A DNA stretch of 64,000 nt. Origin: a virus (taxonomy: Duplodnaviria; Heunggongvirae; Uroviricota; Caudoviricetes). Of this stretch, positions 748 through 64,000 are shown piece after piece. The notes beneath the pieces are model-generated. The model worked only from the letters and a program-made list of their open reading frames with translations. It was not told the origin of the DNA and did not search any database. Each line of letters begins with the position of its first letter. Position 1 is the stretch's first letter. The DNA lies in IMG/VR virus record IMGVR_UViG_3300043444_000502, positions 1 to 64,000 of that record, one strand, 5' to 3'. The position numbers and the translations under genes were made by a program.

Positions 748-770
748 CCAAATTATTTTTAGAAAAACTA

Positions 771-799: not shown

Positions 800-814
800 A
801 GATGTAAGTTAAAT

Positions 815-894: not shown

Positions 895-903
895 CCAATT
901 AAT

Positions 904-1099: not shown

Positions 1100-1174
1100 G
1101 GTTCGTTAGTATAGTTGGCCTAATATGCTTGCCTGTCACGCAAGAGATCACGGGTTCGAATCCCGTACGGACCG
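1100..1174 (+). tRNA. tRNA-Asp: tRNA-Asp(GTC)
   Basis: acceptor GGTTCGT/ACGGACC, anticodon stem CTTGC/GCAAG, loop CTGTCAC, T-arm ACGGGTTCGAATCCCGT. Confidence 0.7.
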
Positions 1175-1184
1175 CCAAATTAAT

Positions 1185-1252
1185 CGCGGAGAGTCAGGGT
1201 AGAGGAAAGTCTCATAAGCTTCTCCTAGAAGGTTCGAATCCTTCCTCCGCAA
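1185..1252 (+). tRNA. tRNA-fMet: tRNA-Met(CAT), initiator-like (C1.A72 mismatch), short D-arm
   Basis: acceptor CGCGGAG/CTCCGCA with unpaired C1-A72, anticodon loop CTCATAA, T-arm GAAGGTTCGAATCCTTC, ends AACCA. Confidence 0.5.
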
Positions 1253-1263
1253 CCAAGTTTTAT

Positions 1264-1337
1264 TGGCCTATAGCACAGTTGGTAGTTGCGCTTGACTGTT
1301 AATCAAGATGTCCGTGGTTCGAGCCCACGTAGGCCAG
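1264..1337 (+). tRNA. tRNA-Asn: tRNA-Asn(GTT)
   Basis: acceptor TGGCCTA/TAGGCCA, anticodon stem CTTGA/TCAAG, loop CTGTTAA, T-loop TTCGAGC. Confidence 0.7.
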
Positions 1338-1412
1338 CCAATTATGTCATGACTAATCTCAGGAACTCCCGTCCACCTGAGTTAAAATAACAAAAAAACG
1401 GGGCCAAATTTT

Positions 1413-1494
1413 GGAGATGTAGGAAAACTGGTAACCCCAGCTGACTGTAAATCAGCCGCCCCTGGCACTGTGTGTTCGACTCACACCGTCTCCA
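1413..1494 (+). tRNA. tRNA-Tyr: tRNA-Tyr(GTA), long variable arm
   Basis: acceptor GGAGATG/CGTCTCC, anticodon stem GCTGA/TCAGC, loop CTGTAAA, T-arm GTGTGTTCGACTCACAC. Confidence 0.7.
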
Positions 1495-1806
1495 CCAAGT
1501 TTTGTAAGTGTTAGCAAGAGAAAGACATCATATTCGAGTAGATGGCCATCGAAAGATTTGATAAAGCAATGAGGGGCGCAATACCCTAGCAAAAAATAGA
1601 AGCATTGGTTAAGTATCCCAAGTGACGTACCGAGTCCCAGCGCGCCTTGATAAATGGGTGAATGATGCATATAACGATGGTTGCATAACTTACAAATTTA
1701 ACAGACCCCGCATTGACCGGTGTGCGTAATCACCGGTCACCATATTTAAGCATACAGTGTGTCGGCTTGCTGATAAACTTTAAGTAGAGATTGTATGCTT
1801 AAATAT

Positions 1807-1878
1807 GGTAACGTAGCAAAGAGGCCTTGCACTTTCTTCATACGGAAGCTAACGCTGGTTCGAATCCAGCCGTTACCA
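1807..1878 (+). tRNA. tRNA-Met: tRNA-Met or Ile2 (CAT), elongator type
   Basis: acceptor GGTAACG/CGTTACC, D-stem GCAA/TTGC, anticodon stem CTTTC/GGAAG, loop TTCATAC, T-arm GCTGGTTCGAATCCAGC. Confidence 0.65.
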
Positions 1879-1897
1879 CCAAGATATATAATTATTT

Positions 1898-1968
1898 GCC
1901 CTATTAGTTTAATGGTAAAACATCGGTTTTGTAATCCGAGGCTTGCAGTTCGATTCTGTGATGGGGCA
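1898..1968 (+). tRNA. tRNA-Thr: tRNA-Thr(TGT)
   Basis: acceptor GCCCTAT/ATGGGGC, D-stem GTTT/AAAC, anticodon loop TTTGTAA (4-5 bp stem), T-loop TTCGATT. Confidence 0.6.
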
Positions 1969-1977
1969 CCAACTTTT

Positions 1978-2051
<74 letters not shown>

Positions 2052-2066
2052 CCAAAATGAGGATAT

Positions 2067-2708
2067 ATGGATATTCCATTATTTGAACAATCGGTTAGAC
2101 ATATTTTATTTCCAACAAAAATTTGGGAATATCAATTAGCTAATACATCTGAACTCGATGTGTATGCACAAAAATTTATTGATATTCGCGAAAAAGAAGG
2201 TGGAGGTTTATATTCTGGATTAGGTAATTGGGTAAGTCCAGATGATTTACACTTGAGAACAGATTGGCAACCTATTAAAGATATTTTTTTAAGTAGAGTT
2301 GCTGCAGCAGTTGATGACTTAGGTATTTTGCATGAAGATCTATACGTAAATTGCATGTGGGGAAATTCTCATATAGGATCAAGTCAACATCAAGTACATC
2401 ATCATCCTAATAGTATGTTTTCTGGAGTATTTTATCTAAGTGCTCCTGAAGGTTGTGGAAATTTATTTTTTAAAGATCCACGCGGACCTTTGGCAAATAC
2501 ATATGTGTTTGACTATAAGGAAGGTTATAATAATTTTGAAATATATAGATTTAAACCGACTAAAGGAAAAATTATTATTTTCCCAAGTTGGTTAGAACAC
2601 GGCACAGAACCAGGAGATTTTGAAGGAGAAAGAATCTCTTTAAGTTTTAACGTAATGGTAAAAACTAAAATTTCTAAACGATCTATTAAATGGAATTATT
2701 ATGACTGA
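2067..2708 (+). CDS. 2OG-Fe(II) oxygenase superfamily protein (TIGR02466-like)
   Basis: motifs HHHPNS ... FPSWLEHG; paralog of 7569 and 8201 ORFs. Confidence 0.6.
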   Translation: MDIPLFEQSVRHILFPTKIWEYQLANTSELDVYAQKFIDIREKEGGGLYSGLGNWVSPDDLHLRTDWQPIKDIFLSRVAAAVDDLGILHEDLYVNCMWGNSHIGSSQHQVHHHPNSMFSGVFYLSAPEGCGNLFFKDPRGPLANTYVFDYKEGYNNFEIYRFKPTKGKIIIFPSWLEHGTEPGDFEGERISLSFNVMVKTKISKRSIKWNYYD

Positions 2709-2865
2709 AGATAAAAAGTGCACATGTGGTCGTTCATTAACTAGCAAATGTGTTGGTTGGCACGATTTAACTGAAGAAGAGTGGAAACAAAAATTGCTTC
2801 AAGCTGTTCAAGCTTTAACTGGACGTGCTAAACAACGCGAAATAGAGAGAAAGAGAAAAAAATGA
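2701..2865 (+). CDS. small hypothetical protein (54 aa, Cys-x-Cys, basic C-terminus)
   Basis: ATG/stop overlaps neighbours (ATGA junction at 2862); not in the >=60 aa track. Confidence 0.3.
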   Translation: MTEDKKCTCGRSLTSKCVGWHDLTEEEWKQKLLQAVQALTGRAKQREIERKRKK

Positions 2866-3131
2866 GTGAAGGCGGAAAAGGTAGTAAACCAAGACCATTT
2901 AGCATTTCTCAAGATGAGTATGATGCTCGATGGGATGCAATCTTTCAACGTGATATTCCTAAAGAAGAGCGAGTTAGTACTAAGATCGAAGATGGTTTCG
3001 AACTAGAAAGCTTAGATCCAGATCAACGTTCATGGTATTATGACGAATATGGTGTTAAACGTAAAAAAGAAAAAGAAGAAGTAAAAATCAAAGCGACGAT
3101 CCTTGATGTAAAGCTTAAAGGATCTATCTAA
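2862..3131 (+). CDS. hypothetical protein
   Basis: ORF track; compact packing. Confidence 0.45.
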   Translation: MSEGGKGSKPRPFSISQDEYDARWDAIFQRDIPKEERVSTKIEDGFELESLDPDQRSWYYDEYGVKRKKEKEEVKIKATILDVKLKGSI

Positions 3132-3136
3132 AACAT

Positions 3137-3209
<73 letters not shown>

Positions 3210-3220
3210 CCAACAATATT

Positions 3221-3300
3221 GCGGATGTGGCGTAATTGGTAGCCGCAACGGTCTTAGAAGCCGTCGCTTCGGCGTGTGAGTTCGAGTCTCACCATCCGCA
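3221..3300 (+). tRNA. tRNA-Leu: tRNA-Leu(TAG), class II
   Basis: acceptor GCGGATG/CATCCGC, anticodon stem ACGGT/GCCGT, loop CTTAGAA, variable arm CGCTTCGGCG, T-arm GTGAGTTCGAGTCTCAC. Confidence 0.7.
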
Positions 3301-3396
3301 CCATTAAAAATTTCCCGATAAAGCTAATCTAGTGAAAGCGCTGGTCTGAAAAGCCAGAGAGTTTGGTGCGTAACCAAATGTCGGGACCACAAATAT

Positions 3397-3469
3397 ACCC
3401 CGTTGGTGAAATGGATGATCATACAACGCTACGAACGTTGAGGTAGAGGTTCGATTCCTTTACGGGGTA
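3397..3469 (+). tRNA. tRNA-Arg: tRNA-Arg(ACG)
   Basis: acceptor ACCCCGT/ACGGGGT, anticodon stem CAACG/CGTTG, loop CTACGAA, T-arm AGAGGTTCGATTCCTTT. Confidence 0.65.
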
Positions 3470-3478
3470 CCAGTTAAT

Positions 3479-3570
3479 GCTCCTGTAGTTTAATGGTAAA
3501 ACTCCAAGCTTATACCTTGGCGATGTCTCTAGATGAGGGAATGATGTGGGTTCGAATCCCGCCGGGAGTA
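3479..3570 (+). tRNA. atypical class II tRNA, 92 nt, anticodon reads TAT (identity unclear: Ile-UAU-like anticodon on a Leu/Ser-like long-arm scaffold)
   Basis: acceptor GCTCCTG/CGGGAGT, D-stem GTTT/AAAC, anticodon stem CCAAG/CTTGG, loop CTTATAC, 25-nt variable region, T-arm GTGGGTTCGAATCCCGC, CCA encoded. Confidence 0.5.
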
Positions 3571-3574
3571 CCAA

Positions 3575-3620
3575 AGTTCTATATGTACAACATGTTAAAA
3601 ATATGGTATAATATACCTAT
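3575..3620 (+). repeat. 47-nt element AGTTCTATATGTACA(A/G)CATGT(T)AAAAATATGGTATAATATA(C)CCTAT, copy 1
   Basis: near-identical copy at 10625-10670 with three differences. Confidence 0.7.
3584..3612 (+). promoter_or_regulatory. early promoter TGTACA-N17-TGGTATAAT
   Basis: part of the 47-nt element duplicated at 10625-10670. Confidence 0.6.
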
Positions 3621-3638
3621 AATTTGAAAGGATATAAT

Positions 3639-4223
3639 ATGCAAGTGAATCTTCGTAAAGCAAATGCAATTCAAGCCGAGATCAAAAAGGCGATTAGTGG
3701 CGTGAAAACAGAAGTAAATGTATCTGTTAGTGAGTTCACTGCAGATATTTCAAAAGCTGTTGCTGATGCTGCAACAGAATTCCTAAATGCTGTGAAGCGT
3801 AAGGAACAACTTAATACAGCATTGTTCGAAATTCGAGCAGCTGTAGGACGAGCAAATGCTCAAGCTGGTGTAGGTGATCTACTTGCAGAAGTAGAACGCA
3901 TTGATGGTAAGATGAATATCATCGCAGCAGTAGCAAATGCTCAAGTAGCAAAGTCTGTAGATGAACTTAAGGCTCGCGTAGAGAAGTTGAAATCTAATAG
4001 CACTGGCGAGAATTCTCGTCTAGCGTTATATGGTGATCGTTACAGTAGTGTAGAAACAAGCGTAGTTGCACAATCTGTGATCGATCAATTCAAAGCTGAA
4101 GTTAAAACACTGAAGCGTGCCAAACAAGATCTTCAAGATAAACTCTTGAATGTGAATGTTGGAACAACCATCACTCTGTCTGCGGACACAGTGAGAGTGT
4201 TAAAAGAGGAAGGTATCCTCTAA
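3639..4223 (+). CDS. hypothetical coiled-coil protein (track start 3624; RBS AAAGGA favours ATG 3639)
   Basis: early promoter at 3584-3612; Ala/Lys/Glu-rich heptad-like sequence. Confidence 0.5.
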   Translation: MQVNLRKANAIQAEIKKAISGVKTEVNVSVSEFTADISKAVADAATEFLNAVKRKEQLNTALFEIRAAVGRANAQAGVGDLLAEVERIDGKMNIIAAVANAQVAKSVDELKARVEKLKSNSTGENSRLALYGDRYSSVETSVVAQSVIDQFKAEVKTLKRAKQDLQDKLLNVNVGTTITLSADTVRVLKEEGIL

Positions 4224-4502
4224 TTTTTCGAGAGTAAGAAGGATAGGAAGTTATTGCATTTAAGGTAAGTTGCAACATTATCGAATTTGTGCTCGATAAT
4301 GCAGGATAAGTCTTGAAAACTTATTCCGACTAATCTCCGGCCAACTCATAGTTAGTTGCTCCCATCATACTGGACGTTAAGTCATTGCTTATTGATAATG
4401 GGATCTTAATACTTTGTGGCCTGCTTATTGTAATTTGCAAATTGCAGGTTGCTGAGCGACTTATCGCATAATGGAATTGATCTCTTACTCTCACCTTCTA
4501 AT

Positions 4503-4573
4503 GCGGGATTAGTTTAGTGGTAAAACGACATCCTTCCAAGTTGTAGTTGCGAGTTCGATTCTCGCATCCCGCT
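4503..4573 (+). tRNA. tRNA-Gly: tRNA-Gly(TCC)
   Basis: acceptor GCGGGAT/ATCCCGC, D-stem GTTT/AAAC, anticodon loop CTTCCAA, T-arm GCGAGTTCGATTCTCGC. Confidence 0.7.
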
Positions 4574-4577
4574 CCAA

Positions 4578-4814
4578 TTGATTATGTACAAAATATATTT
4601 TACAAACGAATACGGTGAAGATAGATCTTATAAAGAAGACTCTTTGTCAGAAGCATTAAAAATTGCTGAAGGACTTAGACGTAATCAAAGAAATAGCTTT
4701 GTTGTAATGACATCAGAGAATCCAAATTGTGTAGGTAAACAGGGTGTTGATAGTGTTGTTGAAGGTAAACTACCTGATGGCAACGATTATGAATGGAAGA
4801 AAAGACGAAAATGA
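4578..4814 (+). CDS. hypothetical protein
   Basis: ORF directly after tRNA-Gly. Confidence 0.4.
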   Translation: MIMYKIYFTNEYGEDRSYKEDSLSEALKIAEGLRRNQRNSFVVMTSENPNCVGKQGVDSVVEGKLPDGNDYEWKKRRK

Positions 4815-4852
4815 AACGAAAACGTAAATCAGAAAAAACCCGAAAGATGATG

Positions 4853-4924
4853 GGGGGTATAACTTAACGGCTAAAGTACCTGGCTTTTAACCAGATAATC
4901 AGAGTTCGATTCTCTGTGCCCCTA
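4853..4924 (+). tRNA. tRNA-Lys: tRNA-Lys(TTT)
   Basis: acceptor GGGGGTA/TGCCCCT, D-stem ACTT/AAGT, anticodon loop CTTTTAA, T-arm CAGAGTTCGATTCTCTG. Confidence 0.65.
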
Positions 4925-5047
4925 CCAAATCATTATAAGAGAGTAGATTGACGAGAACATCATACCACTGCAATGGAACTTGTTCAAGTCGGTTTGCAGA
5001 TCGAGCGGATCTATAAATTACCGTTCAGTCTATTCCCTTATAACGAT

Positions 5048-5119
5048 GGTGTTAGTAGTGTAGTGGCTGCACACTTGTCTGTGAAACAAGTAGAGAGGGT
5101 TCGATTCCCCCTTTCACCC
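5048..5119 (+). tRNA. tRNA-His: tRNA-His(GTG) with extra 5' G(-1)
   Basis: anticodon stem CTTGT/ACAAG, loop CTGTGAA, T-loop TTCGATT; acceptor has two T.T mismatches, so ends uncertain. Confidence 0.55.
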
Positions 5120-5129
5120 CAAAGAATTT

Positions 5130-5202
5130 GCCTGGTTGCGTAGAGAGGTGATACGTCTCCCTTACAAGGAGAGCGATGTTGGTTCGAGTCCAACACCAGG
5201 TA
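5130..5202 (+). tRNA. tRNA-Val: tRNA-Val(TAC)
   Basis: acceptor GCCTGGT/ACCAGGT, anticodon stem TCTCC/GGAGA, loop CTTACAA, T-arm GTTGGTTCGAGTCCAAC. Confidence 0.7.
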
Positions 5203-5225
5203 CCAGATTTGATATATAGTAGTAT

Positions 5226-5297
5226 GCTTCTATAACATAATGGCTAATGTGGACGTCTCTAAAACGTTTTATCTGAGTTCAATTCTCAGTAGAAGCA
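5226..5297 (+). tRNA. tRNA-Sup(CTA): suppressor-type tRNA, anticodon CTA (reads UAG amber), class I
   Basis: acceptor GCTTCTA/TAGAAGC, D-stem ACAT/ATGT, anticodon stem GACGT/ACGTT, loop CTCTAAA, T-arm CTGAGTTCAATTCTCAG, CCA encoded. Confidence 0.6.
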
Positions 5298-5411
5298 CCA
5301 ATTTTTATAAGGAGAAAATCTATGAAAGCGACGCATCTCTAGATTCAAAAGCCTCCGTGATGGTTCTTGTTGTTTAAAGGAAATCATTTTAAATTTAACA
5401 AGGAAAATCAC

Positions 5412-5783
5412 ATGTCTATTGAACTAAAAATTAAAGCAAAACATCTCGCACTTGAGCCAAACATTATTCGTCACGAAGAACGTAAACTCAAGGGGCAAAT
5501 TAAATACACAAACGGAACAGATCAATCGTTGATCTGGAAACTAAACAGTTTACAAAATCATCGTGTGTGTATTGTAAGGAATGAAGCAAGAGCTACTCAT
5601 CTTGCAAGAACGTTCATTGAAGGTAAGCCATATAGTTACGCTGAAAAGAAACGCAATGATGAGGGTTTATTTCAGTTGTATATTATCCCTCGTATCTTAG
5701 CTATGGTGCAACGATACGGTAAGGGTGAACAAAGGAGAATTACGGTTGACGTAATCAAAGAATGGTCTAAACTAGGAGTATAA
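5412..5783 (+). CDS. hypothetical protein (track start 5367; RBS AAGGA before ATG 5412)
   Basis: ORF track. Confidence 0.45.
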   Translation: MSIELKIKAKHLALEPNIIRHEERKLKGQIKYTNGTDQSLIWKLNSLQNHRVCIVRNEARATHLARTFIEGKPYSYAEKKRNDEGLFQLYIIPRILAMVQRYGKGEQRRITVDVIKEWSKLGV

Positions 5784-5784
5784 A

Positions 5785-6342
5785 ATGAATGTGCTGGCAC
5801 TTGACGTAGGTGGAATTCCACGTCAATGGTTAAATTTCGAACAAGCTATATTGTATCATGCTAAAGGCCAAGTTGCTTGGACACTTGGTGATACAGTTGC
5901 TAAGTTCAGAGGAGGTCTACAAAACGATGGTACAGAATCGTATTTAGAATCTCCTTCGATCATTGCTATTAAAGGCGGTGAGGGATTTAATCCTGCAAAA
6001 TTTGGTAAAGTTGTTTTAAGTAACAAAACACTATTTGCAAGAGATAGACATGTCTGCGCGTACTGTGGTAATCATTTTACTTCTAATCATCTTTCCCGTG
6101 ATCATATTGTTCCTGTGTCACGTGGCGGTGAGAATGTTTGGATGAATGTTGTAACTGCGTGTAAGAAATGTAACTCTGTGAAGAGTGACAAAACACTTAA
6201 AGAAGCTCGTATAGAATTGTTATACATTCCATACGAACCAAATCACTACGAACACATGATCCTTATGAATCGTAACATACTTGCAGATCAGATGGAATAT
6301 CTGTTAAGCGGTGTGCCAAAACATTCACGGGTTTTGTCTTAA
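5785..6342 (+). CDS. HNH endonuclease
   Basis: CAYCGN..H..RDHIVPVSRGG...ACKKCN zinc-HNH motif. Confidence 0.8.
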   Translation: MNVLALDVGGIPRQWLNFEQAILYHAKGQVAWTLGDTVAKFRGGLQNDGTESYLESPSIIAIKGGEGFNPAKFGKVVLSNKTLFARDRHVCAYCGNHFTSNHLSRDHIVPVSRGGENVWMNVVTACKKCNSVKSDKTLKEARIELLYIPYEPNHYEHMILMNRNILADQMEYLLSGVPKHSRVLS

Positions 6343-6350
6343 ATCAAATT

Positions 6351-6377
6351 TGGGGATCTCAGATCCCCATTTTTTAT
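6351..6377 (+). terminator. rho-independent terminator
   Basis: GGGGATCT/AGATCCCC hairpin + T-run after the HNH gene. Confidence 0.6.
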
Positions 6378-6390
6378 GATATATAATGAT

Positions 6391-6987
6391 ATGATTGAAA
6401 AGCCTATTATAATTGATGACGTCATCGACGTTTCATATCAAAATGTTCTTATAGAAGAATTCATACAAAAAGCTCCATGGTTTTTTGTAAACGATATTAC
6501 GTTTGCAAATGGTGCAAATCATAGAAAAACTCCAGCCTTTTCCCATTTGTTTACTGAATTTGGAAAATACCATGATGATCAATTTTTTCATATGGTAAGT
6601 CCAATTGCTTATGAAGCATGTAAACATATCAATTATAAAATCGATTTAGTTTATAAAGCTAGATCGTTTTTGCAACTTCCATTATCAGAACAATTTAAAT
6701 CGAAAGATATAGACGCACTACATGTGGATCAACCATTTCCACATCTCGTAGTGCTTTATTATTTGGTTGATTCAGATGGTGATACAATATTGGTTGATCA
6801 TAAACGTGAAGATGATGTAGATTATAATTTAGAAGCATACGATTTTAAAGAATTACTTCGAATTACACCAAAAAAAGGTCGTTGTGTTATCTTTGATGGT
6901 GATTATTATCATACCGCTGAACAACCAGTATATAATACAAGAGCTATTATAAATTTTAATTTACTTGGAAAATTTAAAGATGTTTAA
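6391..6987 (+). CDS. 2OG-Fe(II) oxygenase family protein, sub-family A paralog 1 (track start 6376)
   Basis: LHVDQP..H-x-D ... DGDYYHTAEQP; N-termini of the paralogs align from MIEKPIIIDDVI. Confidence 0.65.
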   Translation: MIEKPIIIDDVIDVSYQNVLIEEFIQKAPWFFVNDITFANGANHRKTPAFSHLFTEFGKYHDDQFFHMVSPIAYEACKHINYKIDLVYKARSFLQLPLSEQFKSKDIDALHVDQPFPHLVVLYYLVDSDGDTILVDHKREDDVDYNLEAYDFKELLRITPKKGRCVIFDGDYYHTAEQPVYNTRAIINFNLLGKFKDV

Positions 6988-7591
6988 AGAACCTATTGTC
7001 ATAGATAATGTCATTTCAAAACGATATCAAACTCATGTGCGTGATAGTTTATTAAGTGCAAATATCGAATGGTTTTATCAACCAGATATTACATATCCAA
7101 TGCATAAAATGCCTGAAGGTTTTATTCCAAAACCGGGTTTATCACATTTGTATTACGATAATGTTAGAAGCCAAAATCCGCTTAGTCCATGGTTTCATAT
7201 GATTTGGCCTATCGCATTAGAAGCATGTGATAAAATGAATATTGTATTCGATGAATTAATGCGCGCTCGTTCATTTTTACATTTCCCTACAGATCCAAAT
7301 AGTAAACTACTTAATCATCCACACATTGATTATGAAATTCCACATTTAGTTTTATTATATTATGTTAATGATAGCGATGGTCCAACGGTTTTATATAATG
7401 AAACACTCGTTGATATTAAAGAAAAGGATTTGTCACTTGATAAACTTACTGTGAAAATGGAAGTAGAACCACGTCAAGGGCGAATGGTTATTTTTGATGG
7501 ACACACATATCATAGTAGCACACAACCTACAAAATCATCTCGATGTATTATTAATTATAATTTATTAGGTGCAAAATATGCAACTAACTAA
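6980..7591 (+). CDS. 2OG-Fe(II) oxygenase family protein, sub-family A paralog 2 (track start 6965)
   Basis: PHIDYEIPH ... FDGHTYHSS; paralog of the 6391 ORF. Confidence 0.65.
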   Translation: MFKEPIVIDNVISKRYQTHVRDSLLSANIEWFYQPDITYPMHKMPEGFIPKPGLSHLYYDNVRSQNPLSPWFHMIWPIALEACDKMNIVFDELMRARSFLHFPTDPNSKLLNHPHIDYEIPHLVLLYYVNDSDGPTVLYNETLVDIKEKDLSLDKLTVKMEVEPRQGRMVIFDGHTYHSSTQPTKSSRCIINYNLLGAKYATN

Positions 7592-8213
7592 TGCGTTTGA
7601 AGTTCCGATTTTGTATCATAAACAAAAATTACAATCACATGATACAATAAAACAATGGATTTTAAACATGTATTCGAAATCTCCTGTAATGGATGGAAAC
7701 TTTTATGGGACAGGATTTACAACTCATTTCTATAATGACTTTACTAGCGAATTACATGTATTAGATGAATTTTTTCCATTGCGCAATCACATTTTGCAAA
7801 AAGCATCAGAATATGCGATGGAACGAATTGTTAAACTAAAATCGATGGGATGCGAAGTACAATCAGATCCTCGTTTAAAGATTAAAAAAATGTGGTTTAA
7901 TGTTAATCCGAAACATGGTTATCAAGGTCGACATCATCATGGTGGATTTGTATTAGCTGGAACATATTATGTAAATGTACCACAATATTCCGGAGCAATT
8001 GAATTCACAGATCCAAATCCATTTTCATATTATAAAAACCAAAGTATGGGTCATCGTTGGTTATTGAATAATTATTATAGTGTAACACCAGAAGAAGGTG
8101 ATTTATTAATTTGGCCAGGTTATTTAGATCATGAAGTCAAAACTAATAAATCGAATGACTTAAGAATGACTGTATCATTTTGTTTAGATTGGGAGGAAGA
8201 ATGCCCGCAGTAA
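7569..8213 (+). CDS. 2OG-Fe(II) oxygenase superfamily protein (TIGR02466-like), sub-family B
   Basis: HHHGGF ... WPGYLDHEV; paralog of the 2067 and 8201 ORFs. Confidence 0.6.
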   Translation: MQNMQLTNAFEVPILYHKQKLQSHDTIKQWILNMYSKSPVMDGNFYGTGFTTHFYNDFTSELHVLDEFFPLRNHILQKASEYAMERIVKLKSMGCEVQSDPRLKIKKMWFNVNPKHGYQGRHHHGGFVLAGTYYVNVPQYSGAIEFTDPNPFSYYKNQSMGHRWLLNNYYSVTPEEGDLLIWPGYLDHEVKTNKSNDLRMTVSFCLDWEEECPQ

Positions 8214-8836
8214 TTTATCCTTTTGGACCAGGTTTATATAAAGCTCGTTTATCTGATGACGTATTACATATGCTACAAGAAGTAGTAGAACGTGTACGTA
8301 AAGATGATTCTTTGAATAGAAGTTATAAAGCTGGTCAATTTGTATATGGTAAAAATCCAATGATGGATTTTACACCTGAAGAATTTAAATTATTTGATTT
8401 AGAAATCAAACGACATATGCTATCATACTTTTTAGAAATGCGGAATACTATTCGCATGGATAAAGATATGTCTAAAAAATGTTTAGATGCTGTTAATACA
8501 ATGCGACCGCACAATGATCATGAAAATGAAGCTAGCATTTGGGCGAATATCCAACATGCAGGTGATATGCATCCAATTCATAATCATCCAGGTGATATTT
8601 CATTTGTAACATATATTAAAGTTCCAGAATTAACTGAAGAAGATAAATTCAGAAGCGGAGGTATGGTTGCATGGACATATGGAGAATATATGGAATTTTC
8701 TAATGATATGTTTGCGCATCAACCTGAGGTTGGAGAAATTTTTATTTTTCCACCAAAATGTAGACACTTTGTTTGGCCATTTAGTAATAAAGATGGAGAA
8801 CGCATTTCTGTAGCAGGTAATTATGAATTTGCCTAA
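8201..8836 (+). CDS. 2OG-Fe(II) oxygenase superfamily protein (TIGR02466-like), sub-family B (track start 8180)
   Basis: HNHPGD ... FPPKCRHFVWP ... GERISVAGNYEF. Confidence 0.6.
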   Translation: MPAVIYPFGPGLYKARLSDDVLHMLQEVVERVRKDDSLNRSYKAGQFVYGKNPMMDFTPEEFKLFDLEIKRHMLSYFLEMRNTIRMDKDMSKKCLDAVNTMRPHNDHENEASIWANIQHAGDMHPIHNHPGDISFVTYIKVPELTEEDKFRSGGMVAWTYGEYMEFSNDMFAHQPEVGEIFIFPPKCRHFVWPFSNKDGERISVAGNYEFA

Positions 8837-9440
8837 TGACGTAATAGTATTAGATGATTTCTTACCTAAAGCTTTTGTTGAACGATATGCTCAACGAGTT
8901 TTAGATAAAGATTTCAATTGGTTTTATTTAGAAAATATTACTAGAAGCAATATTCCTAGAACATATAAATCAATTGATAATATTGAATGGCATGATACAG
9001 ATGGTTTATCACATTCTGTATTTCACGATAAAGAATGGTATGATCCATATTGGTCATTACAACATTCTTTGTTTATATGCGAAATGTTTGCAGAAAAAAC
9101 GGGTTGGAATTTTGATAGACTATATCGAATGAAAATTAATCAATTGATGATTACACCAAAATATGAAATTAATTTTCCTCATGTGGACGCAGAACATCCT
9201 CATGATGTTTTATTATATTACATTAATGATAGCGATGGAGAAACTATTCTTTATGATAAAATGTGGGAACCATCACACAATAATACAGAAGTAGAATTGA
9301 AAGAAATTTTACGAATTCCCCCAAAAGCAGGAAGATGCATTAAATTTAATGGTTTGCGTTATCATAGTAGTTCAACACCTGTTAAAACAAAAAGACGTTT
9401 AGCACTTAATATGAATTTAGGATACACACATGGAATATAA
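8823..9440 (+). CDS. 2OG-Fe(II) oxygenase family protein, sub-family A paralog 3
   Basis: PHVDAEHPHDVLLYYINDSDG ... NGLRYHSS. Confidence 0.65.
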   Translation: MNLPNDVIVLDDFLPKAFVERYAQRVLDKDFNWFYLENITRSNIPRTYKSIDNIEWHDTDGLSHSVFHDKEWYDPYWSLQHSLFICEMFAEKTGWNFDRLYRMKINQLMITPKYEINFPHVDAEHPHDVLLYYINDSDGETILYDKMWEPSHNNTEVELKEILRIPPKAGRCIKFNGLRYHSSSTPVKTKRRLALNMNLGYTHGI

Positions 9441-10080
9441 CGATATTATTGTAAGAGATGGATTAGTTCCGAAATATTTGCAACGAAGATTTTATGATGC
9501 TGTAACAGATCGCAATCTCCATTGGATGGATTTTGATCATGAAGTATCTTCAGGCGATTATTGGAAAGGTCGTAATTATTTGTGTGATGGTTTAAATATT
9601 AAACCATCACCGTGTTTAGTTAAATTAGCATTTACTGGTGGAGCACGAGGACCAAATGATCCAGAAATGATTCATGAACCAGAATGTTTTTACTATATGG
9701 GATTGTTCATTCTTGATCTTTTAGCTGAGAACGAAGGTTGGAATGTGAAACGCATTCTTCGCATGAAGATCAACAAACAAGTTCCTATGCATGGTTTTAC
9801 AGAAAACGATTGTAATGGAATTCATACAGATACAGAAATTCCACATAAAACACTAGTGTATTATATCAATGATAGCGATGGTGATACAATTATTATGAAT
9901 GAAAAATTTCAACCATCGCATAATGTACCAGGATGCGATATTAATACTACTATTGCAACACGTGTAACACCTATGCAAGGTAGAATTGCATGTTTTGACG
10001 GATTACGTTATCATGCTCCTAGTAATCCAATTAATTCTAAATCTCGATACCTTTTAAACATTAACTTTGTGACTGAATAA
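9430..10080 (+). CDS. 2OG-Fe(II) oxygenase family protein, sub-family A paralog 4
   Basis: IHTDTEIPH ... YYINDSDGDT ... DGLRYHAPS. Confidence 0.65.
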   Translation: MEYNDIIVRDGLVPKYLQRRFYDAVTDRNLHWMDFDHEVSSGDYWKGRNYLCDGLNIKPSPCLVKLAFTGGARGPNDPEMIHEPECFYYMGLFILDLLAENEGWNVKRILRMKINKQVPMHGFTENDCNGIHTDTEIPHKTLVYYINDSDGDTIIMNEKFQPSHNVPGCDINTTIATRVTPMQGRIACFDGLRYHAPSNPINSKSRYLLNINFVTE

Positions 10081-10625
10081 TGAAAAATTATATTTCCGTA
10101 TATGAAAACGTTTTAGACGAAACATTTTGCAAACTACTAATTGATAAGTTTGAACGAAATAAACAAATTCAAGTGCGTAGAGATGATGTTTATAAAACAT
10201 TTTTTGAAATTAATTTTGCACAATATCCAATTTTTGCAGAAGAACAAAATCATATTCTTTCACAAGTACAACCATTTGTTAGAAAATACTGTGAAGATTG
10301 GGGGATTAAATTCTTCCCAGATAAAATTGGATTTGAACAAGTTCGTATGAAAAAATACGAAATTGGAGGCAAAGATGAATTTAGAGAACACGTCGATGTA
10401 GGAGATTATGCGTCTGCACGTAGATTTCTTGTAATGTTCTTTTATCTCAATAATGTTGCAGAAGGTGGAGAAACTGCTTTTATTGGTATTGATGACAATA
10501 AAAGAATTCAACCTAAAACTGGCAGCATATTAATTTTCCCTCCAATGTGGACACATCCTCATGCTGGTTTGCCGCCAATTTCTAATCCAAAATATATTGC
10601 AGGAACATATTTGCATTATACTTAA
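10080..10625 (+). CDS. prolyl 4-hydroxylase-like 2OG-Fe(II) oxygenase, sub-family C
   Basis: EHVDVGD ... AEGGETAF ... WTHPHAG; paralog of the 15431 ORF. Confidence 0.65.
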   Translation: MKNYISVYENVLDETFCKLLIDKFERNKQIQVRRDDVYKTFFEINFAQYPIFAEEQNHILSQVQPFVRKYCEDWGIKFFPDKIGFEQVRMKKYEIGGKDEFREHVDVGDYASARRFLVMFFYLNNVAEGGETAFIGIDDNKRIQPKTGSILIFPPMWTHPHAGLPPISNPKYIAGTYLHYT

Positions 10626-15430: not shown

Positions 15431-16033
15431 ATGCAAAGCGATATTCGCGATTTTATTGGTGTATTTGATGACGCTCTTCCAGAAACTGTATGTGAAGAAT
15501 TAATAAAACATTATCATTATGTTGATCAATGGGCTTTAACTGATAAACGCACATTTGATCGCCAAGAAGCTGAACACATTGGAAAAACGTATAAAGATGA
15601 TAAAACATACTTTATGCATGAAGAACATTTAGATGAAATAAAGTTAATCAATTCTTGGCTAGCTGGTGTAATGAATAAAGCAATTAGATCTTGCATTGAA
15701 GAATACAATAAAAAATATGATGTATTATTAAATAGAGGTTATGGTTTATGGGGACATCGTCTTCAAAAAACTGGAATCGGTGCAGGTTATCACGTATGGC
15801 ATTACGAAAATAGCGGTAAAGAAGATAGTGATAGAATTTTAGCTATATTAGTATATCTTAATGACGTTGAAGAAGGCGGAGAAACAGAATTCCTTTATTA
15901 TCCTCGCCGCGTTAAACCTAAAAAAGGTAGAATCGTTATTTTCCCAGTAGGATATACTCATACACATCGTGGCAATCCTCCAATTTCTAATGAAAAATAT
16001 TTAGTTGCCACATGGACAAACAACGTAAACTGA
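15431..16033 (+). CDS. prolyl 4-hydroxylase-like 2OG-Fe(II) oxygenase
   Basis: GYHVWHYEN ... VEEGGETEF ... YTHTHRG. Confidence 0.65.
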   Translation: MQSDIRDFIGVFDDALPETVCEELIKHYHYVDQWALTDKRTFDRQEAEHIGKTYKDDKTYFMHEEHLDEIKLINSWLAGVMNKAIRSCIEEYNKKYDVLLNRGYGLWGHRLQKTGIGAGYHVWHYENSGKEDSDRILAILVYLNDVEEGGETEFLYYPRRVKPKKGRIVIFPVGYTHTHRGNPPISNEKYLVATWTNNVN

Positions 16034-16156: not shown

Positions 16157-16390
16157 ATGGTAAAAACGATTGGAAGAAAGATGTGTAATTGTTTATTCTG
16201 GGCTTTATGGATGAAATTCAGGTGGGGTGGACAAATCAAATGGCATAAAAGTCGTACATGGTTTGGGTTTCATAACACATGGATAAATCCTAAAGGTGTA
16301 GAATGGGAATACACATTAGAGAAAGTTAAACGACATTCAATATGGTATATTCCAATATGCTATAAAGGTGTTGTAAAGAAATTGTTGTAA
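16157..16390 (+). CDS. hypothetical Trp/Lys-rich small protein (doubtful)
   Basis: ORF track only; abuts the tmRNA. Confidence 0.25.
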   Translation: MVKTIGRKMCNCLFWALWMKFRWGGQIKWHKSRTWFGFHNTWINPKGVEWEYTLEKVKRHSIWYIPICYKGVVKKLL

Positions 16391-16391
16391 T

Positions 16392-16445
16392 CCCTTCAAA
16401 GCGAAGGACTTCTGGACGCGGGTTCGACTCCCGCCTCCTCCACCA
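16392..16445 (+). ncRNA. ssrA: tmRNA (ssrA) acceptor piece of a circularly permuted two-piece tmRNA: T-arm + 3' acceptor strand + CCA
   Basis: GGACGCGGGTTCGACTCCCGCCTCCTCCACCA matches the conserved tmRNA 3' end; CTCCTCC pairs with GGGGGAG at 16534-16540 including G3.U70. Confidence 0.8.
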
Positions 16446-16533
16446 AAAGTATACTTAAATCTGTAAAAAGATCGGGATTGGTAAGCCGGAACCTCTACTT
16501 AGTAAGTTCATTTCACCTTAGTATACTTCTGAT

Positions 16534-16723
16534 GGGGGAGCCATGGTTTCGACAGGGGTAGATAGTAGAGACGGCAACACGGTAGGCGATGACCGTAAAT
16601 CAAGCAAATAACGTAAATGCAAACGATAGCGCATACGCTTTAGCAGCCTAAGAAACTAGCTAAGCTGAGGTAACTATACCTTATAATCAAAAATAGTAAA
16701 GGCTCCTTCGGGAGCCTTTTTTT
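16534..16723 (+). ncRNA. ssrA: tmRNA (ssrA) coding piece: 5' acceptor strand GGGGGAGCCATGGTTTCGACAGGGG, tag ORF 16604-16651 encoding ANNVNANDSAYALAA-stop, 3' terminator hairpin
   Basis: conserved tmRNA 5' motif (GGGG..GGnTTCGACnGGG); tag ends YALAA + TAA; located 3' of the acceptor piece, i.e. a permuted gene order. Confidence 0.8.
16701..16723 (+). terminator. rho-independent terminator (3' end of tmRNA)
   Basis: GGCTCC-TTCG-GGAGCC + T7. Confidence 0.7.
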
Positions 16724-16726
16724 ACG

Positions 16727-16734
16727 TATAAATA
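16727..16734 (+). promoter_or_regulatory. T4-type late promoter TATAAATA
   Basis: upstream of the tail-fibre gene. Confidence 0.55.
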
Positions 16735-16770
16735 GATTAGGAATACAACCATTCATGGACGATCTATTAT

Positions 16771-60936: not shown

Positions 60937-61431
60937 ATGATTACGCTTGATGAAATTGTTGGATTTATCCACAACCCTTTAGCATATCAACAAAAATTAG
61001 TATCAGTAATAAACAATAAGGGGGAGCAAATCCCCCTTAATTATTTCAATGAATTATATTCATACGATAATGCAACAATTAAGGTTGAAGGATTAGAACG
61101 TTATTCTGAAAATATTTGGAATAAATGCAAAAAATATGCTTTGAAATATAATCATAATGGCCCTATAACGTGTCATGGATTTATCGCTAAGCAAGATTCT
61201 CCATCATTTGGAATGCATATTGATCCAGATGATGTTATCATTTATTGTGTTGAAGGTATAAAAACACTAATTGTAAATAATGACTATATAATATTAAAAG
61301 CCGGTGATGAAATTCATATTCCAGCAAACACCGCACATCAAGCTTTAAATGAATATGCAGCTTTTACTCTAAGCTTTGGATTAGAGAAATATTTGAAAGA
61401 TAAAACCAATGAATTGGATGTTTTACCTTAA
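60937..61431 (+). CDS. cupin/JmjC-like Fe(II) oxygenase
   Basis: HIDPDD ... HIPANTAH double-stranded beta-helix metal site. Confidence 0.55.
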   Translation: MITLDEIVGFIHNPLAYQQKLVSVINNKGEQIPLNYFNELYSYDNATIKVEGLERYSENIWNKCKKYALKYNHNGPITCHGFIAKQDSPSFGMHIDPDDVIIYCVEGIKTLIVNNDYIILKAGDEIHIPANTAHQALNEYAAFTLSFGLEKYLKDKTNELDVLP

Positions 61432-62455
61432 AACTACTGAGACGTGTAATTTAAACTGTAAACATTGTTTTACCAATGGGACAAATGGTCCTAAAATTTA
61501 TTGGGACACATTTAAAGTTATTAATTGGTTATATAGATTTGCAACTCAACATTATAATAAAAATGATAGTGTTCACTGTGAATTTCACGGAGGAGAACCA
61601 TTTTTAGTGCCTCCTCGACAAATGCAGGAAGTTATTGATAAAACGCATTTCTTTTATGACAATATTACGTGGGGAGCAACCACTAATTTAGTTTTTAAAT
61701 TATATGATGAACATATTGATTTGATTAAGCGTTCATTCAATAATAGGATTGCAACTTCTTGGGATCCAAAAATAAGATTTGCAAATAATAAACAATATGA
61801 GTTATGGCATAATAACGTTAAAAAATTATTAGCTGCAGGTATTACTGTAAAATTATTCATAAGCGTAACACAAGATACAATAAATATTGATCCTAAAGTT
61901 ATGCTTAGGTGGATTAGAAGATTAGGTGTTCATGAGGTTAGTTTTGAAAGATTAACACACAATGGATCTGCAAATAAATTTCCAGATATATTTCCAAAAA
62001 ATATAGATCAAGATCAGTGGTTCTTAAAATTATATGAATCCAGTGAAAAACTTGGTGCCAGAGAATGGTTTAAAAACGAGTCTTTAGAAACGATCTATAG
62101 CAAATTTGAAACTGGTTTTACTTCTGGTGGTACATTTTGTAGAGATTGTGAAGAAAAGATTTTTACTATTAATGCTGATGGAACTATAGCTGGTTGTCCA
62201 AATTCAGCTCCAGAACAATCATTTGGACATATAGATGATTCAATAAAAGATCTTATAAATAGACCAATAAGATTAGAAAACATTGCATGTGAACGTAGTA
62301 GAAACCCCGCGTGTTATTCATGCGAAGTATTTGAATATTGCGGAGGTGATTGCCATCAATTGGCATGGCAAGATGACATATGCGGTGCACCAAAAAGCTT
62401 AATGAAACAACTTTCAAATAAGAAAAAAACCATATGGTTAATTAAGGAAATATAA
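61418..62455 (+). CDS. radical SAM enzyme with C-terminal SPASM domain (track start 61409)
   Basis: CNLNCKHCF CxxxCxxC cluster; C-terminal CRDCE...GCPN...CYSCEVFEYCGGDCH auxiliary-cluster motifs. Confidence 0.8.
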   Translation: MFYLKTTETCNLNCKHCFTNGTNGPKIYWDTFKVINWLYRFATQHYNKNDSVHCEFHGGEPFLVPPRQMQEVIDKTHFFYDNITWGATTNLVFKLYDEHIDLIKRSFNNRIATSWDPKIRFANNKQYELWHNNVKKLLAAGITVKLFISVTQDTINIDPKVMLRWIRRLGVHEVSFERLTHNGSANKFPDIFPKNIDQDQWFLKLYESSEKLGAREWFKNESLETIYSKFETGFTSGGTFCRDCEEKIFTINADGTIAGCPNSAPEQSFGHIDDSIKDLINRPIRLENIACERSRNPACYSCEVFEYCGGDCHQLAWQDDICGAPKSLMKQLSNKKKTIWLIKEI

Positions 62456-63030
62456 TGGCAACATTAAACGATCCAATTACCGCACAAAATATTATAGATC
62501 GATTTGCTGACTATGTACAAGCTACTGCTAATAGTGGTATTTCATGGGGAACAAATGCTATACCATCTGAAATTCCATCGTCGTATTTCGGAGGAGATAC
62601 TAGTGGAAAAGGACTTGAAACTGCAGTTATTAATAATGCAGGAATGGTAGTTGATAATACAGTTATTGCAAATAATGTATATGATGCACTTTTAGCTGAA
62701 ACCCGTAGATTTGCTAGAATTAGAAATTTAAGAGCTGTATTAGTAGTTGATGGTGGTGGAGGAAATACTGGTTCTAGACCTTCTCCTGGGGTAGTATATG
62801 ATTCTACAGCAGTTGCACATTTAAATGCTAATTATGATCAAACTTTAGGTTTACCCGATAGAGTTGACATTTATGAAGGCAATTTAATTACCAAAAATGG
62901 TTTAGAACAATTTTTTGATAATTTAAGAACTGAATATAATAGCGCTAGAGCTAATACAGCATATATTGAATATCATGTATGTCATGCATCGTGTCATTCA
63001 TCATGTCATAGTTCTAGAGGAAGAAGATAA
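62455..63030 (+). CDS. hypothetical protein with C-terminal CH-repeat tail (HVCHASCHSSCHSSRGRR)
   Basis: ATGG overlap with the radical-SAM stop; Cys-His triplet repeat. Confidence 0.5.
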   Translation: MATLNDPITAQNIIDRFADYVQATANSGISWGTNAIPSEIPSSYFGGDTSGKGLETAVINNAGMVVDNTVIANNVYDALLAETRRFARIRNLRAVLVVDGGGGNTGSRPSPGVVYDSTAVAHLNANYDQTLGLPDRVDIYEGNLITKNGLEQFFDNLRTEYNSARANTAYIEYHVCHASCHSSCHSSRGRR

Positions 63031-63032: not shown

Positions 63033-63698
63033 ATGAATATTGTGAAAACTATCGCGCCAATTTCTATTGAAGATTTGAAAAAATACTTTGTAGATAAATC
63101 TACATTCTATGTAATTGATTATAAAAATTCTACTTTACGCGGTACTAAATTATTAACATATTTGTCAAATTTAGATATACCATGTGATATTGACTATAGT
63201 GAATGCTCGCAACATGACATTGATGCATTATTAGTTGATTATCTAAATACTCAAATGATAGTAAATATTTCATCATTAGAAAAATCAATTACATTATTAT
63301 TGTGTGATTATAAAGATGGACGTATATCTGAATTTGCTGAAAATAATAAAGATATTATTGAGAAGTGGATATCTAAATTGGATAGTTTAACTCTTTATAA
63401 TATGTCTATTGTTTCATGTGAGCAATTTAAAGAATTTACAAATGCATTTTTAAAAGATGATAGCGATAGTTTAATTGGAATTAATTTTATTAGTCTATTG
63501 AAAAATCTAGAATTTTATGCATATTATGATACTCCTATTGATAAAAATAATTTAAAGTATTATAACCATTATTTCAACGATTACATGTTTAAAGGCAAAA
63601 ATTTATTTTCATATTGGGCTAATGAAAATAATCCATTGTTTTTATTGACATATGGAATCTCAGAAGGATTACTAACAAATGTTACACCTGTTCAATAA
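63033..63698 (+). CDS. hypothetical protein
   Basis: ORF track. Confidence 0.45.
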   Translation: MNIVKTIAPISIEDLKKYFVDKSTFYVIDYKNSTLRGTKLLTYLSNLDIPCDIDYSECSQHDIDALLVDYLNTQMIVNISSLEKSITLLLCDYKDGRISEFAENNKDIIEKWISKLDSLTLYNMSIVSCEQFKEFTNAFLKDDSDSLIGINFISLLKNLEFYAYYDTPIDKNNLKYYNHYFNDYMFKGKNLFSYWANENNPLFLLTYGISEGLLTNVTPVQ

Positions 63699-64000
63699 AG
63701 TTTATTTAGAATTTGATGATAAGATCGAAATGAATATCGATCGAGTTATCATATCAGAAAAATATGGTATTCCATTATTGGATGCATTAGATAAAGTCGC
63801 ATATGGTAAATTAATAACATACGGTAAAGACTTTGGAGATATTTTATCTAAGAATGGATTAAATAATTTTGCCGATTTAATTGAAAAATTAAAATTATAT
63901 GGTGATACTAGCGATAAAAAAATAATTGTATATTGTGATAAAGTTTCATATATTCAATTTATTTCAGTGTGGTTAAAAACAATTTGTCCTGAATTAACCG
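63678..64000 (+). CDS. hypothetical protein, 3'-truncated by the window edge
   Basis: open frame from ATG 63678 to the window end. Confidence 0.3.

Follow-up and report, generated by a model that had tools for sequence, protein, structure and literature searches.

We describe a gene island in a tailed phage (Caudoviricetes; IMG/VR record IMGVR_UViG_3300043444_000502), for which we analyzed positions 1 to 64,000, hereafter the window (64,000 nt of a 246-kb metagenomic contig), as well as the same contig extended past the window end (locus L004). Directly behind a tail-fibre-like gene, the window encodes a cupin/JmjC-type oxygenase, a radical S-adenosylmethionine (rSAM) enzyme that we name rSAM1, and a 191-amino acid (aa) protein, hereafter the tail protein, which ends in CHASCHSSCHSSRGRR and bears an invariant 16-residue Cys-His-Ser tail. 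On balance, the tail protein is probably a dedicated substrate, with its C-terminal tail matured by rSAM1 and other iron enzymes of the island, after which it is built into the virion. The best reading, as we infer it, is a protein-borne maturation of a virion, probably fibre-associated, protein, which resembles the making of RiPPs, peptides that the ribosome synthesizes and that are then modified post-translationally. A first-pass annotation, made from the letters of the window, had proposed a three-gene system; its genes and the tail are real, but the island proved to be much larger than three genes.

The tail protein consists of an alpha/beta domain without known fold (residues 1–176) followed by a C-terminal tail predicted to be flexible, which is tentatively helical at residues 178–184 in the AlphaFold2 (AF2) model, with Cys and His then on adjacent faces. 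The tail is the sole conserved element of the protein containing Cys or His, the body having no other conserved Cys or His, and the C-x3-C-x3-C spacing occurs only once in the real open reading frames (ORFs) of the window. The whole protein as query retrieved 704 clusters; among the 120 matches listed, all end in CHxxCHxxCHxxRxRR. Since this search was possibly seeded by the tail itself, we added two tests without tail bias, and loci retrieved through the tail pattern were not counted as evidence for its conservation. First, we retrieved loci through rSAM1 only. For the best 80 of 376 IMG/VR loci, a tail ORF lies downstream on the same strand in 76, and the remaining four are contigs that end less than 300 bp past the enzyme. 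Second, residues 1–174, a query lacking the tail, were searched against a representative library of 1.84 billion proteins. This found 133 clusters, 116 of which have the strict tail, while the remaining 17 are fragments or near-variants (differing by an additional Gly ahead of RxRR, by having two or four repeats, or by loss of the middle Cys). Within the 116 tail-bearing representative clusters, C, H, and R-x-RR are invariant (116/116), position 4 of the repeat is Ser in 109, 91, and 104 clusters for repeats 1, 2, and 3, respectively, and otherwise Asn or Ala, and position 3 is free. The bodies of these proteins have diverged to 29–54% identity while the tail stays invariant. Judged from these sequences, the tail is not a chance feature and is obligate on its N-domain. 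The first-pass annotation had named loss of the CH-repeat tail in homologous cassettes as grounds for doubt; the tail is kept in 76/76 loci with enough downstream sequence and in all five cultured lineages checked.

Variations on this arrangement were seen in some loci, which have two tandem tail-protein genes or four CHxS units (L174, L182, L184, L194, L211, L076–L078, L081; L196, L204), TICHSSCHSSCHGSCHGSRGRR being a four-unit example. The fold of the N-domain is shared with three proteins of 504–660 aa from one phage, Myoviridae sp. ctijX18 (BFVD A0A8S5USJ7, A0A8S5USJ8, and A0A8S5USV2; E 3e-6 to 5e-4), which suggests that it is able to form part of larger, probably structural, proteins. Neither a near-identity DNA search with the region nor tblastn with the tail protein found a match in the phage collection, for which divergence and low-complexity masking are the probable reasons; rSAM and cupin queries were used instead.

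The enzymatic nature of rSAM1 is well supported. It matches Radical_SAM (PF04055) with 33.4 bits (cut-off 29.5) and the TIGR04085 SPASM model with 33.1 bits (curated cut-off 27), so the profile check proposed for the ORF at 61409/61418 found the C-terminal SPASM domain that the first-pass annotation had called there. The CX3CX2C motif, C13/C17/C20, is invariant in four phage lineages, and so are eight Cys of the C-terminal domain (C244, C247, C263, C302, C305, C311, C315, and C325), which form the motif C247-x15-C263 (G258-x4-C263), C302-x2-C305-x5-C311-x3-C315, and C325, with C244 as an extra Cys ahead. Such an eight-Cys SPASM pattern is anSME-like, with both auxiliary clusters fully Cys-ligated. 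The best full-length NCBIfam matches of rSAM1 are PapB (NF047865; 3.6e-15, 56 bits) and DynA (6.8e-15), followed by anSME and cyclophane synthases. While phmmer with the single rSAM1 sequence found nothing in PDB sequences at E ≤ 0.01, a four-sequence profile matched 8vpo_A (5.5e-8), anSME (2.4e-7), and CteB (3.3e-7). Since its best full-length relatives (PapB, DynA, anSME, and CteB) are peptide or protein maturases, these matches support the view that the tail is a substrate.

The gene preceding rSAM1 had been called a cupin/JmjC-type Fe(II) oxygenase, and this call stands. In the Pfam profile search, both Cupin_2 (PF07883; 33.6 bits vs. cut-off 27.2) and JmjC_2 (PF08007; 30.7 vs. 22) score above their gathering cut-offs, and the protein matches phrog_8014 at 2.8e-32. 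The metal triad H93-x-D95...H134 is kept in at least 95% of 51 orthologues, and K108 in the barrel, the one hint at 2-oxoglutarate dependence and a protein side chain as substrate, is also conserved. Its best PDB sequence matches are quercetin dioxygenase cupins, over an alignment of only 35 residues. The JmjC_2 family includes hydroxylases of ribosomal-protein His and Arg residues. The cupin gene is paired with the rSAM1 gene in 14 cultured phage records.

These genes open an island, annotated with Pfam, NCBIfam, and PHROG, which comprises four rSAM paralogues, four Fe(II) oxygenase-like proteins, and four proteins without known family, behind a T4-like baseplate/fibre module. Past the window end, the same strand encodes rSAM2, p186, rSAM3, p179 (2-oxoglutarate [2OG]-like), rSAM4, p132, and two 2OG-FeII_Oxy_5 proteins, followed by more fibre genes. 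rSAM2 and rSAM3 have a SPASM-like domain, and rSAM4 a reduced C-terminal Cys motif. All four rSAMs belong to phrog_1802 and share 26–32% identity, in the N-terminal part only, a strong divergence indicating that they are distinct enzymes rather than recent copies. No NCBIfam match was found for the tail protein, p221, p376, p186, or p132.

We found relatives of the island in at least 376 IMG/VR viral contigs and in five cultured jumbo-phage lineages. Synteny is near-universal: the gene order cupin-rSAM1-tail protein-p221-(p376)-rSAM2 is seen in essentially all of ~80 IMG/VR loci and recurs in Ralstonia phage RSL2, Agrobacterium phage Atu_ph07, Pseudomonas phage DT01, and Sinorhizobium phage Phosso, whose tails read CHSSCHTSCHGSRGRR, CHSSCHASCHNSRSRR, CHTSCHTSCHSARGRR, and CHTSCHASCHSSRSRR, respectively; the tail protein is gp068 in RSL2 and PA10_00065 in DT01. 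The island occupies 7–9 kb inside the baseplate/fibre module. In the papers describing the Burkholderia jumbo phages FLC6 and S13, its genes are listed merely as accessory or of unknown function, and we found no functional study of it in the literature searched. The earlier view that this is not a standard phage feature needs qualifying: the island is unstudied, but it is widespread in a large group of phages rather than rare. In L211 (671–7896; also L184 and L194), a 1737-aa fibre gene is directly followed by two tail proteins of 137–140 aa, and the C-terminal region of the 1737-aa protein is common to the 360-aa fibre protein of the window. The next gene in L211, a 400-aa ORF with CDHGCLGC (CX3CX2C) and a C-terminal CNGCQFAVAC, was considered as an rSAM, which neither Pfam nor hhalign supported. 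Two further contigs, L219 (a 99.7-kb Joint Genome Institute [JGI] contig) and L200 (a 249-kb contig of a metagenome-assembled genome labeled Bacilli, 28% GC), are phage-like and carry the tail protein beside a run of at least five rSAM paralogues, reminiscent of a marine T4-like virus whose genome was reported to have 12 rSAM genes (PMC5332604).

A link to the virion or its fibres, proposed in the first-pass annotation, was strengthened by published proteomics. Among the virion proteins of Atu_ph07 (Attai et al. 2018, PMC6102473, Table S5) is gp170, detected by electrospray ionization tandem mass spectrometry (ESI-MS/MS) with 8 unique peptides and 35% coverage. We identified gp170 as the tail-protein orthologue (L002, 7044–7934), whose sequence contains NMWYQSANVTASIGVDFCHSSCHASCHNSR, and the computed masses of gp170, gp176, and gp177 equal the table values exactly. 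Also a virion protein is gp176, the counterpart of the 360-aa fibre protein of the window. Missing from the virion list are the other products of the island: gp165–169, the rSAM gp171, and the cupin gp172 (PMC6102473). A tail protein that is in the particle while the enzymes are not is the pattern expected of a substrate and its maturases; the virion assignment of the 191-aa protein rests on this orthologue and not on the phage of the window. On the gel, gp170 (31.9 kDa) was spread over bands 1–9, with a peak in the top slice (band 1) beside proteins of mostly 75–139 kDa (PMC6102473), which suggests an oligomer or adduct resistant to SDS and heat. We do not take this as proof of enzymatic cross-linking because the gel loading buffer, as described, lists no reducing agent (PMC6102473).

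The island is not confined to phages. We scanned one genome per prokaryotic species with a degenerate DNA pattern of the tail, which matched 47 stretches. Eight high-GC matches, in which no ORF ends in the tail, were discarded as chance. There are 37 complete ORFs ending in the tail. Bdellovibrionota account for 26 of them and for a truncated copy as well (L209), and their contigs include some of 1.3 to 2.8 Mb. There, the tail ORF sits among homologues of rSAM1–4, p221, p132, and the 2OG-like proteins, in shuffled order. rSAM1 lies within 1.3 kb of the tail ORF in 15/16 loci and p221 in 14/15, while rSAM2–4 are not kept close. Since this proximity survives shuffling of the gene order, rSAM1, the tail protein, and p221 appear to be the functional core. 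These bacterial islands (L214, L215, and L218; also L171–L212) have 4–6 rSAM paralogues together with 2OG and JmjC-like oxygenases. In 3/3 extended cellular islands, one of them in a 1.29-Mb Halobacteriovoraceae contig (L214), they are adjoined by housekeeping genes and a Peptidase_S74 fibre-like protein, and then a ~200-aa protein. The Peptidase_S74 neighbour in L214, the one scanned against PHROGs, matches tail-fibre families. A link of the island to fibre-type genes is thus common to phages and predators, given their fibre or Peptidase_S74 neighbours.

How might such a system work? In the cytoplasm of the infected cell, rSAM1 would modify the C-terminal tail of the 191-aa protein, with p221 as an obligatory partner, possibly a presenter or chaperone. 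Further tailoring would probably be carried out by the cupin, rSAM2–4, and the 2OG-type oxygenases of the island. The chemistry most compatible with both relatives and motif would be H-atom abstraction at C-beta within each C-H-x-S unit, and the outcome could be intramolecular cross-links (a Cys thioether, or a three-residue ring joining His to Ser), an HXS-like modification, or oxidation of Cys to formylglycine. The cupin may add His or Arg hydroxylation, the tail offering invariant His and Arg. The matured protein would then enter the virion, most likely at or near the fibre or baseplate, where a rigid, basic, possibly metal-binding or cross-linking tail could serve recognition or penetration of the host envelope.

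The proposal that a SPASM enzyme acts on the CH-x-S tail of its neighbour, already made in the first-pass annotation, gains from the obligate co-occurrence of the tail and its linkage to rSAM1, while the lack of a leader, RiPP recognition element (RRE), or protease counts against it. These absences therefore point to protein maturation rather than a classical RiPP pathway, which we rejected on three grounds: at 191 aa, the precursor is a folded protein; Pfam gave no PqqD or peptidase match in the island; and gp170 is present in virions at 35% coverage. An N-terminal RRE would have no room in rSAM1 since its cluster motif starts at residue 13.

Several observations weigh against maturation of the tail by rSAM1. 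Pfam and NCBIfam scans found no RRE/PqqD-like domain and no protease in the island. rSAM1 scores far below every curated equivalog cut-off and, judging by these scores, the chemistry of its relatives is not transferable to it. In thioether formers, an auxiliary cluster typically leaves one iron site open, to which the substrate Cys binds, whereas the eight conserved SPASM Cys of rSAM1 suggest, by analogy with anSME, fully ligated clusters, less typical of such enzymes. One lineage (L184/L194/L211) has no profile-supported rSAM within the visible 8 kb. The high apparent mass of gp170 could reflect disulfide linkage via the tail Cys rather than an enzymatic cross-link. Finally, four rSAMs and four oxygenases face one obvious substrate, and there may be other targets.

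Maturation of a neighbouring Cys/His/Ser motif by rSAM/SPASM enzymes is in itself a known kind of system, and the nearest precedent, by analogy, is the HXS anti-phage system, in which two rSAMs and a small partner mature HxsA at basic His-x-Ser repeats, with +8 Da on SHRSS (Li et al., Nat Commun 2026, PMC13128918). As would be the case in the island, a whole protein is matured at tandem basic His-x-Ser units by more than one rSAM with a small non-enzymatic partner, and the His and Ser essential in HXS are invariant or near-invariant in the phage tail. The basic tandem His-x-Ser repeats that define an HXS effector are present in the tail, as three H-x-S units plus RGRR with His invariant and Ser in 91–109 of 116 clusters. 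Membership in the HXS family was rejected: rSAM1 scores 28.4 bits against HxsB (TIGR03978; cut-off 370) and rSAM3 29.8 against HxsC (TIGR03977; cut-off 267.9), and no island protein matches the HxsA (TIGR03979) or HxsD models. The phage tail also differs by an invariant Cys per unit, a strictly C-terminal position, an RxRR end, and the lack of a signal peptide or peptidoglycan-binding domain. Moreover, the island has four rSAMs plus oxygenases and is encoded by phages or predators, and its product is a virion protein (in Atu_ph07) rather than a host defence effector.

Three enzyme groups are instructive for the chemistry. anSME and AtsB resemble rSAM1 in being minimal rSAM plus SPASM enzymes of ~350–370 aa with eight SPASM Cys and no RRE. 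anSME acts on a full-length protein, and the last tail unit, C-H-x-S-R, has the Cys/Arg spacing of the sulfatase motif C-x-P/A-x-R, which is a loose resemblance. rSAM1 does not belong to this family (TIGR03942; 35.9 bits vs. cut-off 349), and the system differs by a +2 position that is mostly Gly, Ser, or Asn instead of Pro/Ala, by its three repeats, and by its extra enzymes; no sulfatase domain was found with Pfam. PapB, the best full-length NCBIfam match, and CteB, among the best PDB matches, act on Cys-rich repeat substrates, and QhpD acting on QhpC is a precedent for cross-linking inside a protein subunit. In contrast, the rSAM1 system has neither RRE nor leader, and its fully Cys-ligated SPASM pattern is atypical of enzymes that bind a substrate Cys. 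rSAM1 was rejected as a PapB-type ranthipeptide maturase, for which NF047865 requires 340 bits (rSAM1 scores 56), and the tail has no acidic residue, hence no Cys-X3-Asp/Glu acceptor. Lastly, cyclophane synthases and DynA (FxsB, XyeB, YhhB, AmcB, and HaaB/HtkB) act on repeated Omega-x-X motifs, where they join the side chain of His or an aromatic residue to C-beta two positions on (i+2); the tail's H-x-S/N/A fits such a motif. With DynA, which forms three-residue links between Trp and Asn and between His and Tyr, rSAM1 has its second-best full-length match and rSAM3 its best. rSAM1 scores 23–31 bits against FxsB (TIGR04269), XyeB (TIGR04496), YhhB (NF041707), and AmcB (NF041718), whose cut-offs are 370–450. 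HtkB links His-C2 to Lys-C-beta in a three-residue motif (PMC11499958). Known cyclophane substrates are short, leader-containing peptides that are released, unlike a 190-aa virion protein, and the invariant Cys would be left unexplained.

On the structural side, the tail protein resembles fibre accessory proteins (T4/T2 gp38-type adhesins and Tfa chaperones) in that its gene lies behind a fibre gene, directly so in L211, and in being small, fast-evolving, and, for the Atu_ph07 orthologue, in the virion. No sequence or fold similarity to such proteins was detected, and we know of no fibre accessory protein with dedicated rSAM enzymes. A known defence system was also rejected since PADLOC-DB 2.0 gave only generic rSAM similarity to viperins of prokaryotes (2e-9 to 1e-6), and nothing for the tail protein, p221, cupin, p376, p186, or p132. 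What sets the island apart from all these systems is its folded putative substrate (virion-borne in Atu_ph07), its large enzyme complement, its location in the tail module, and its sharing with predatory bacteria.

Among the alternatives, the one that survives best, albeit unlikely, is that the tail is a metal- or Fe-S-binding element and not a substrate. The three Cys and three His at i/i+4 spacing might serve as metal sites within an oligomeric fibre or spike, comparable to the His-rich motifs of T4 gp37 and of spike tips, or the protein might be an iron/Fe-S carrier or redox partner for the eight iron enzymes of the island. This would explain why the conserved Cys and His of the protein are confined to the tail, and the tentative helix placing them on adjacent faces is in keeping with it, as are the four Fe-S and four mononuclear-iron enzymes encoded nearby and the Fe-S assembly genes carried by rSAM-rich marine T4-like phages (PMC5332604). 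The presence of gp170 in Atu_ph07 virions suits a structural metal site, but one would not expect a virion that lacks the enzymes to contain their carrier. Nor do metal motifs often need an invariant Ser at position 4 and a C-terminal RxRR, and specific linkage to rSAM1 and p221 despite shuffled gene order typifies an enzyme with its substrate. To our knowledge, CxxxCxxxC is not among the known Fe-S ligand patterns, which counts against this alternative as well. Metal binding and modification of the tail are not mutually exclusive.

Less probable still is that the enzymes act elsewhere, on the neighbouring fibre proteins, on some small molecule or cofactor, or on a component of the host envelope, the tail protein being a co-located structural or assembly protein with a disulfide-forming Cys end. 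The mismatch between four divergent rSAMs plus four oxygenases and a single obvious substrate motif argues for such a scenario. SPASM enzymes do use non-peptide substrates, and relatives of this kind (NirJ, AhbC, and Tes) are also among the NCBIfam matches of the island rSAMs. A position behind a fibre gene is typical of fibre-assembly or adhesin genes, and gp170 runs high in a gel whose described buffer lists no reductant. However, the N-domain never occurs without the tail, a tail ORF accompanies every rSAM1 locus with enough downstream sequence, the best full-length relatives of rSAM1 mature peptides and proteins, and Pfam, NCBIfam, and PHROG revealed no domain in the island for making sugars, lipids, nucleotides, or cofactors.

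Very improbable is a counterpart of HXS, in which a matured basic HxS tail binds DNA at the envelope for superinfection exclusion or transfer of the phage's own genome: the three His-x-Ser units plus RGRR do resemble the basic HxS repeats of the DNA-binding HxsA (PMC13128918), but the island proteins fall short of the curated HXS models, tail proteins have no hydrophobic signal-peptide-like N-terminus (by sequence inspection only) and no Pfam peptidoglycan-binding domain, the invariant tail Cys has no counterpart in SHRSS, the site of the mapped HxsA modification, the similarity in PADLOC is only generic and viperin-like, and a virion location is unlike that of a periplasmic host-side gatekeeper.

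No rival accounts as well as maturation of the tail for the obligate tail, its linkage to rSAM1 and p221, a virion orthologue without its enzymes, and the invariant Ser and RxRR. A bolder extension, which is speculative and which we hold only tentatively, is that phages and Bdellovibrionota share a kit of four rSAMs and Fe(II) oxygenases that builds a (CHxS)3-RxRR "warhead" on a fibre-associated particle or surface protein, with which the envelope of a Gram-negative host or prey is recognized, gripped, or breached. Such a warhead would add a new class to the radical post-translational modifications, one placed on a structural protein of the virion, and it might act as a tip that binds metal or cross-links covalently. 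Proteolysis, autocatalytic isopeptide links, and glycosylation are the modifications known from virions; we know of no radical-SAM chemistry on a phage virion protein and found none in the literature searched. The cost of 7–9 kb and its retention in hundreds of uncultured T4-like and jumbo phages, five cultured lineages, and predators point to an important shared role at the cell envelope. If maturation of the tail is correct, the island would offer four new rSAM activities along with a substrate motif that is also new, and possibly a new handle on host recognition in phages under development for biocontrol. Culturable systems exist in Ralstonia phages RSL2/RSF1, Burkholderia phages FLC6/S13, Agrobacterium phage Atu_ph07, and Pseudomonas phage DT01.

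The layout of the window genes is given in Table 1. Three ORFs had been placed at 60937–63030, right after a tail-fibre gene, and both the coordinates of the ORFs, which are on the plus strand, and the tail-fibre PHROG matches of the upstream gene bear this out. The motifs quoted at the time (MHIDPDD, HIPANTAH, CNLNCKHCF, CRDCE, GCPN, and CYSCEVFEYCGGDCH) are all found in the ORFs, and the last 18 residues of the 191-aa protein are indeed HVCHASCHSSCHSSRGRR. The one error concerns the junction of the rSAM1 and tail-protein genes, described as an ATGG coupling overlap and in fact a 1-nt TAATG, in which TAA is the stop and ATG the start codon; an AAGGA is located 9 nt upstream. By sequence, the two genes are translationally coupled via this 1-nt overlap.

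Table 1. Genes and motif of the island and its upstream neighbour within the window
Feature	Coordinates	Strand	Remarks
Tail-fibre-like protein, 360 aa	59854..60936	+	PHROG tail-fibre matches 1e-15 to 1e-17; directly upstream of island
Cupin/JmjC-type Fe(II) oxygenase, 164 aa	60937..61431	+	Cupin_2 and JmjC_2 profiles; phrog_8014
rSAM1, radical-SAM/SPASM enzyme, 348 aa	61409..62455	+	Radical_SAM, TIGR04085; JGI alternative start 61418
Tail protein, 191 aa, proposed substrate	62455..63030	+	Alpha/beta N-domain plus flexible C-terminal tail
C-terminal tail C176-R191, (C-H-x-S)x3 then R-G-R-R, stop codon	62980..63027	+	Conserved motif
p221, conserved partner protein	63033..63698	+	Nearly always directly downstream of tail protein
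p376, N-terminal part, cut by window end	63730..64000	+	Next island gene

A fibre-gene homologue precedes the island in most related loci, and we regard the 360-aa tail-fibre-like protein as context and possibly a partner of the tail protein. Farther upstream is a T4-like baseplate module, which includes relatives of gp27, gp5, gp6, gp7, and gp8 and a 2163-aa DUF4815 protein. We infer late co-transcription of the island with the baseplate genes from tight gene packing only. The T4-late-promoter-like motif TATAAATA is not enriched, with nine copies in the window vs. 10 expected. It lies just 5' of several structural genes (51723, 42669, 18050, 16727, 14519, and 62254), such as 41 nt before the gp8-like gene at 51764, and the copy at 62254 sits inside rSAM1, 200 nt ahead of the tail-protein start. 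Within the cupin coding region, at 61017–61039, there is a perfect 9-bp GC-rich stem-loop, TAAGGGGGAGCAAATCCCCCTTA, with a terminator-like score on both strands.

Elsewhere in the window, 62–5300 holds a dense array of 24 tRNAs covering most amino acids, including one with a CTA anticodon that ARAGORN calls "Pyl" and that would be an amber suppressor. A tmRNA at 16333–16742, with the tag peptide ANDSAYALAA, scores 158.7 bits with Rfam beta_tmRNA and 154.6 bits with permuted tmRNA; being a two-piece tmRNA of the betaproteobacterial type, it may point to the group of the host. Finally, paralogous ORFs of ~205 aa, with 26–40% identity (E 1e-16 to 1e-41), were seen at 6376–10080 and in the comparison of 10080–10625 with 15431–16033, and these belong to a longer tandem series of ~200-aa ORFs that runs from 5367 to 10625.

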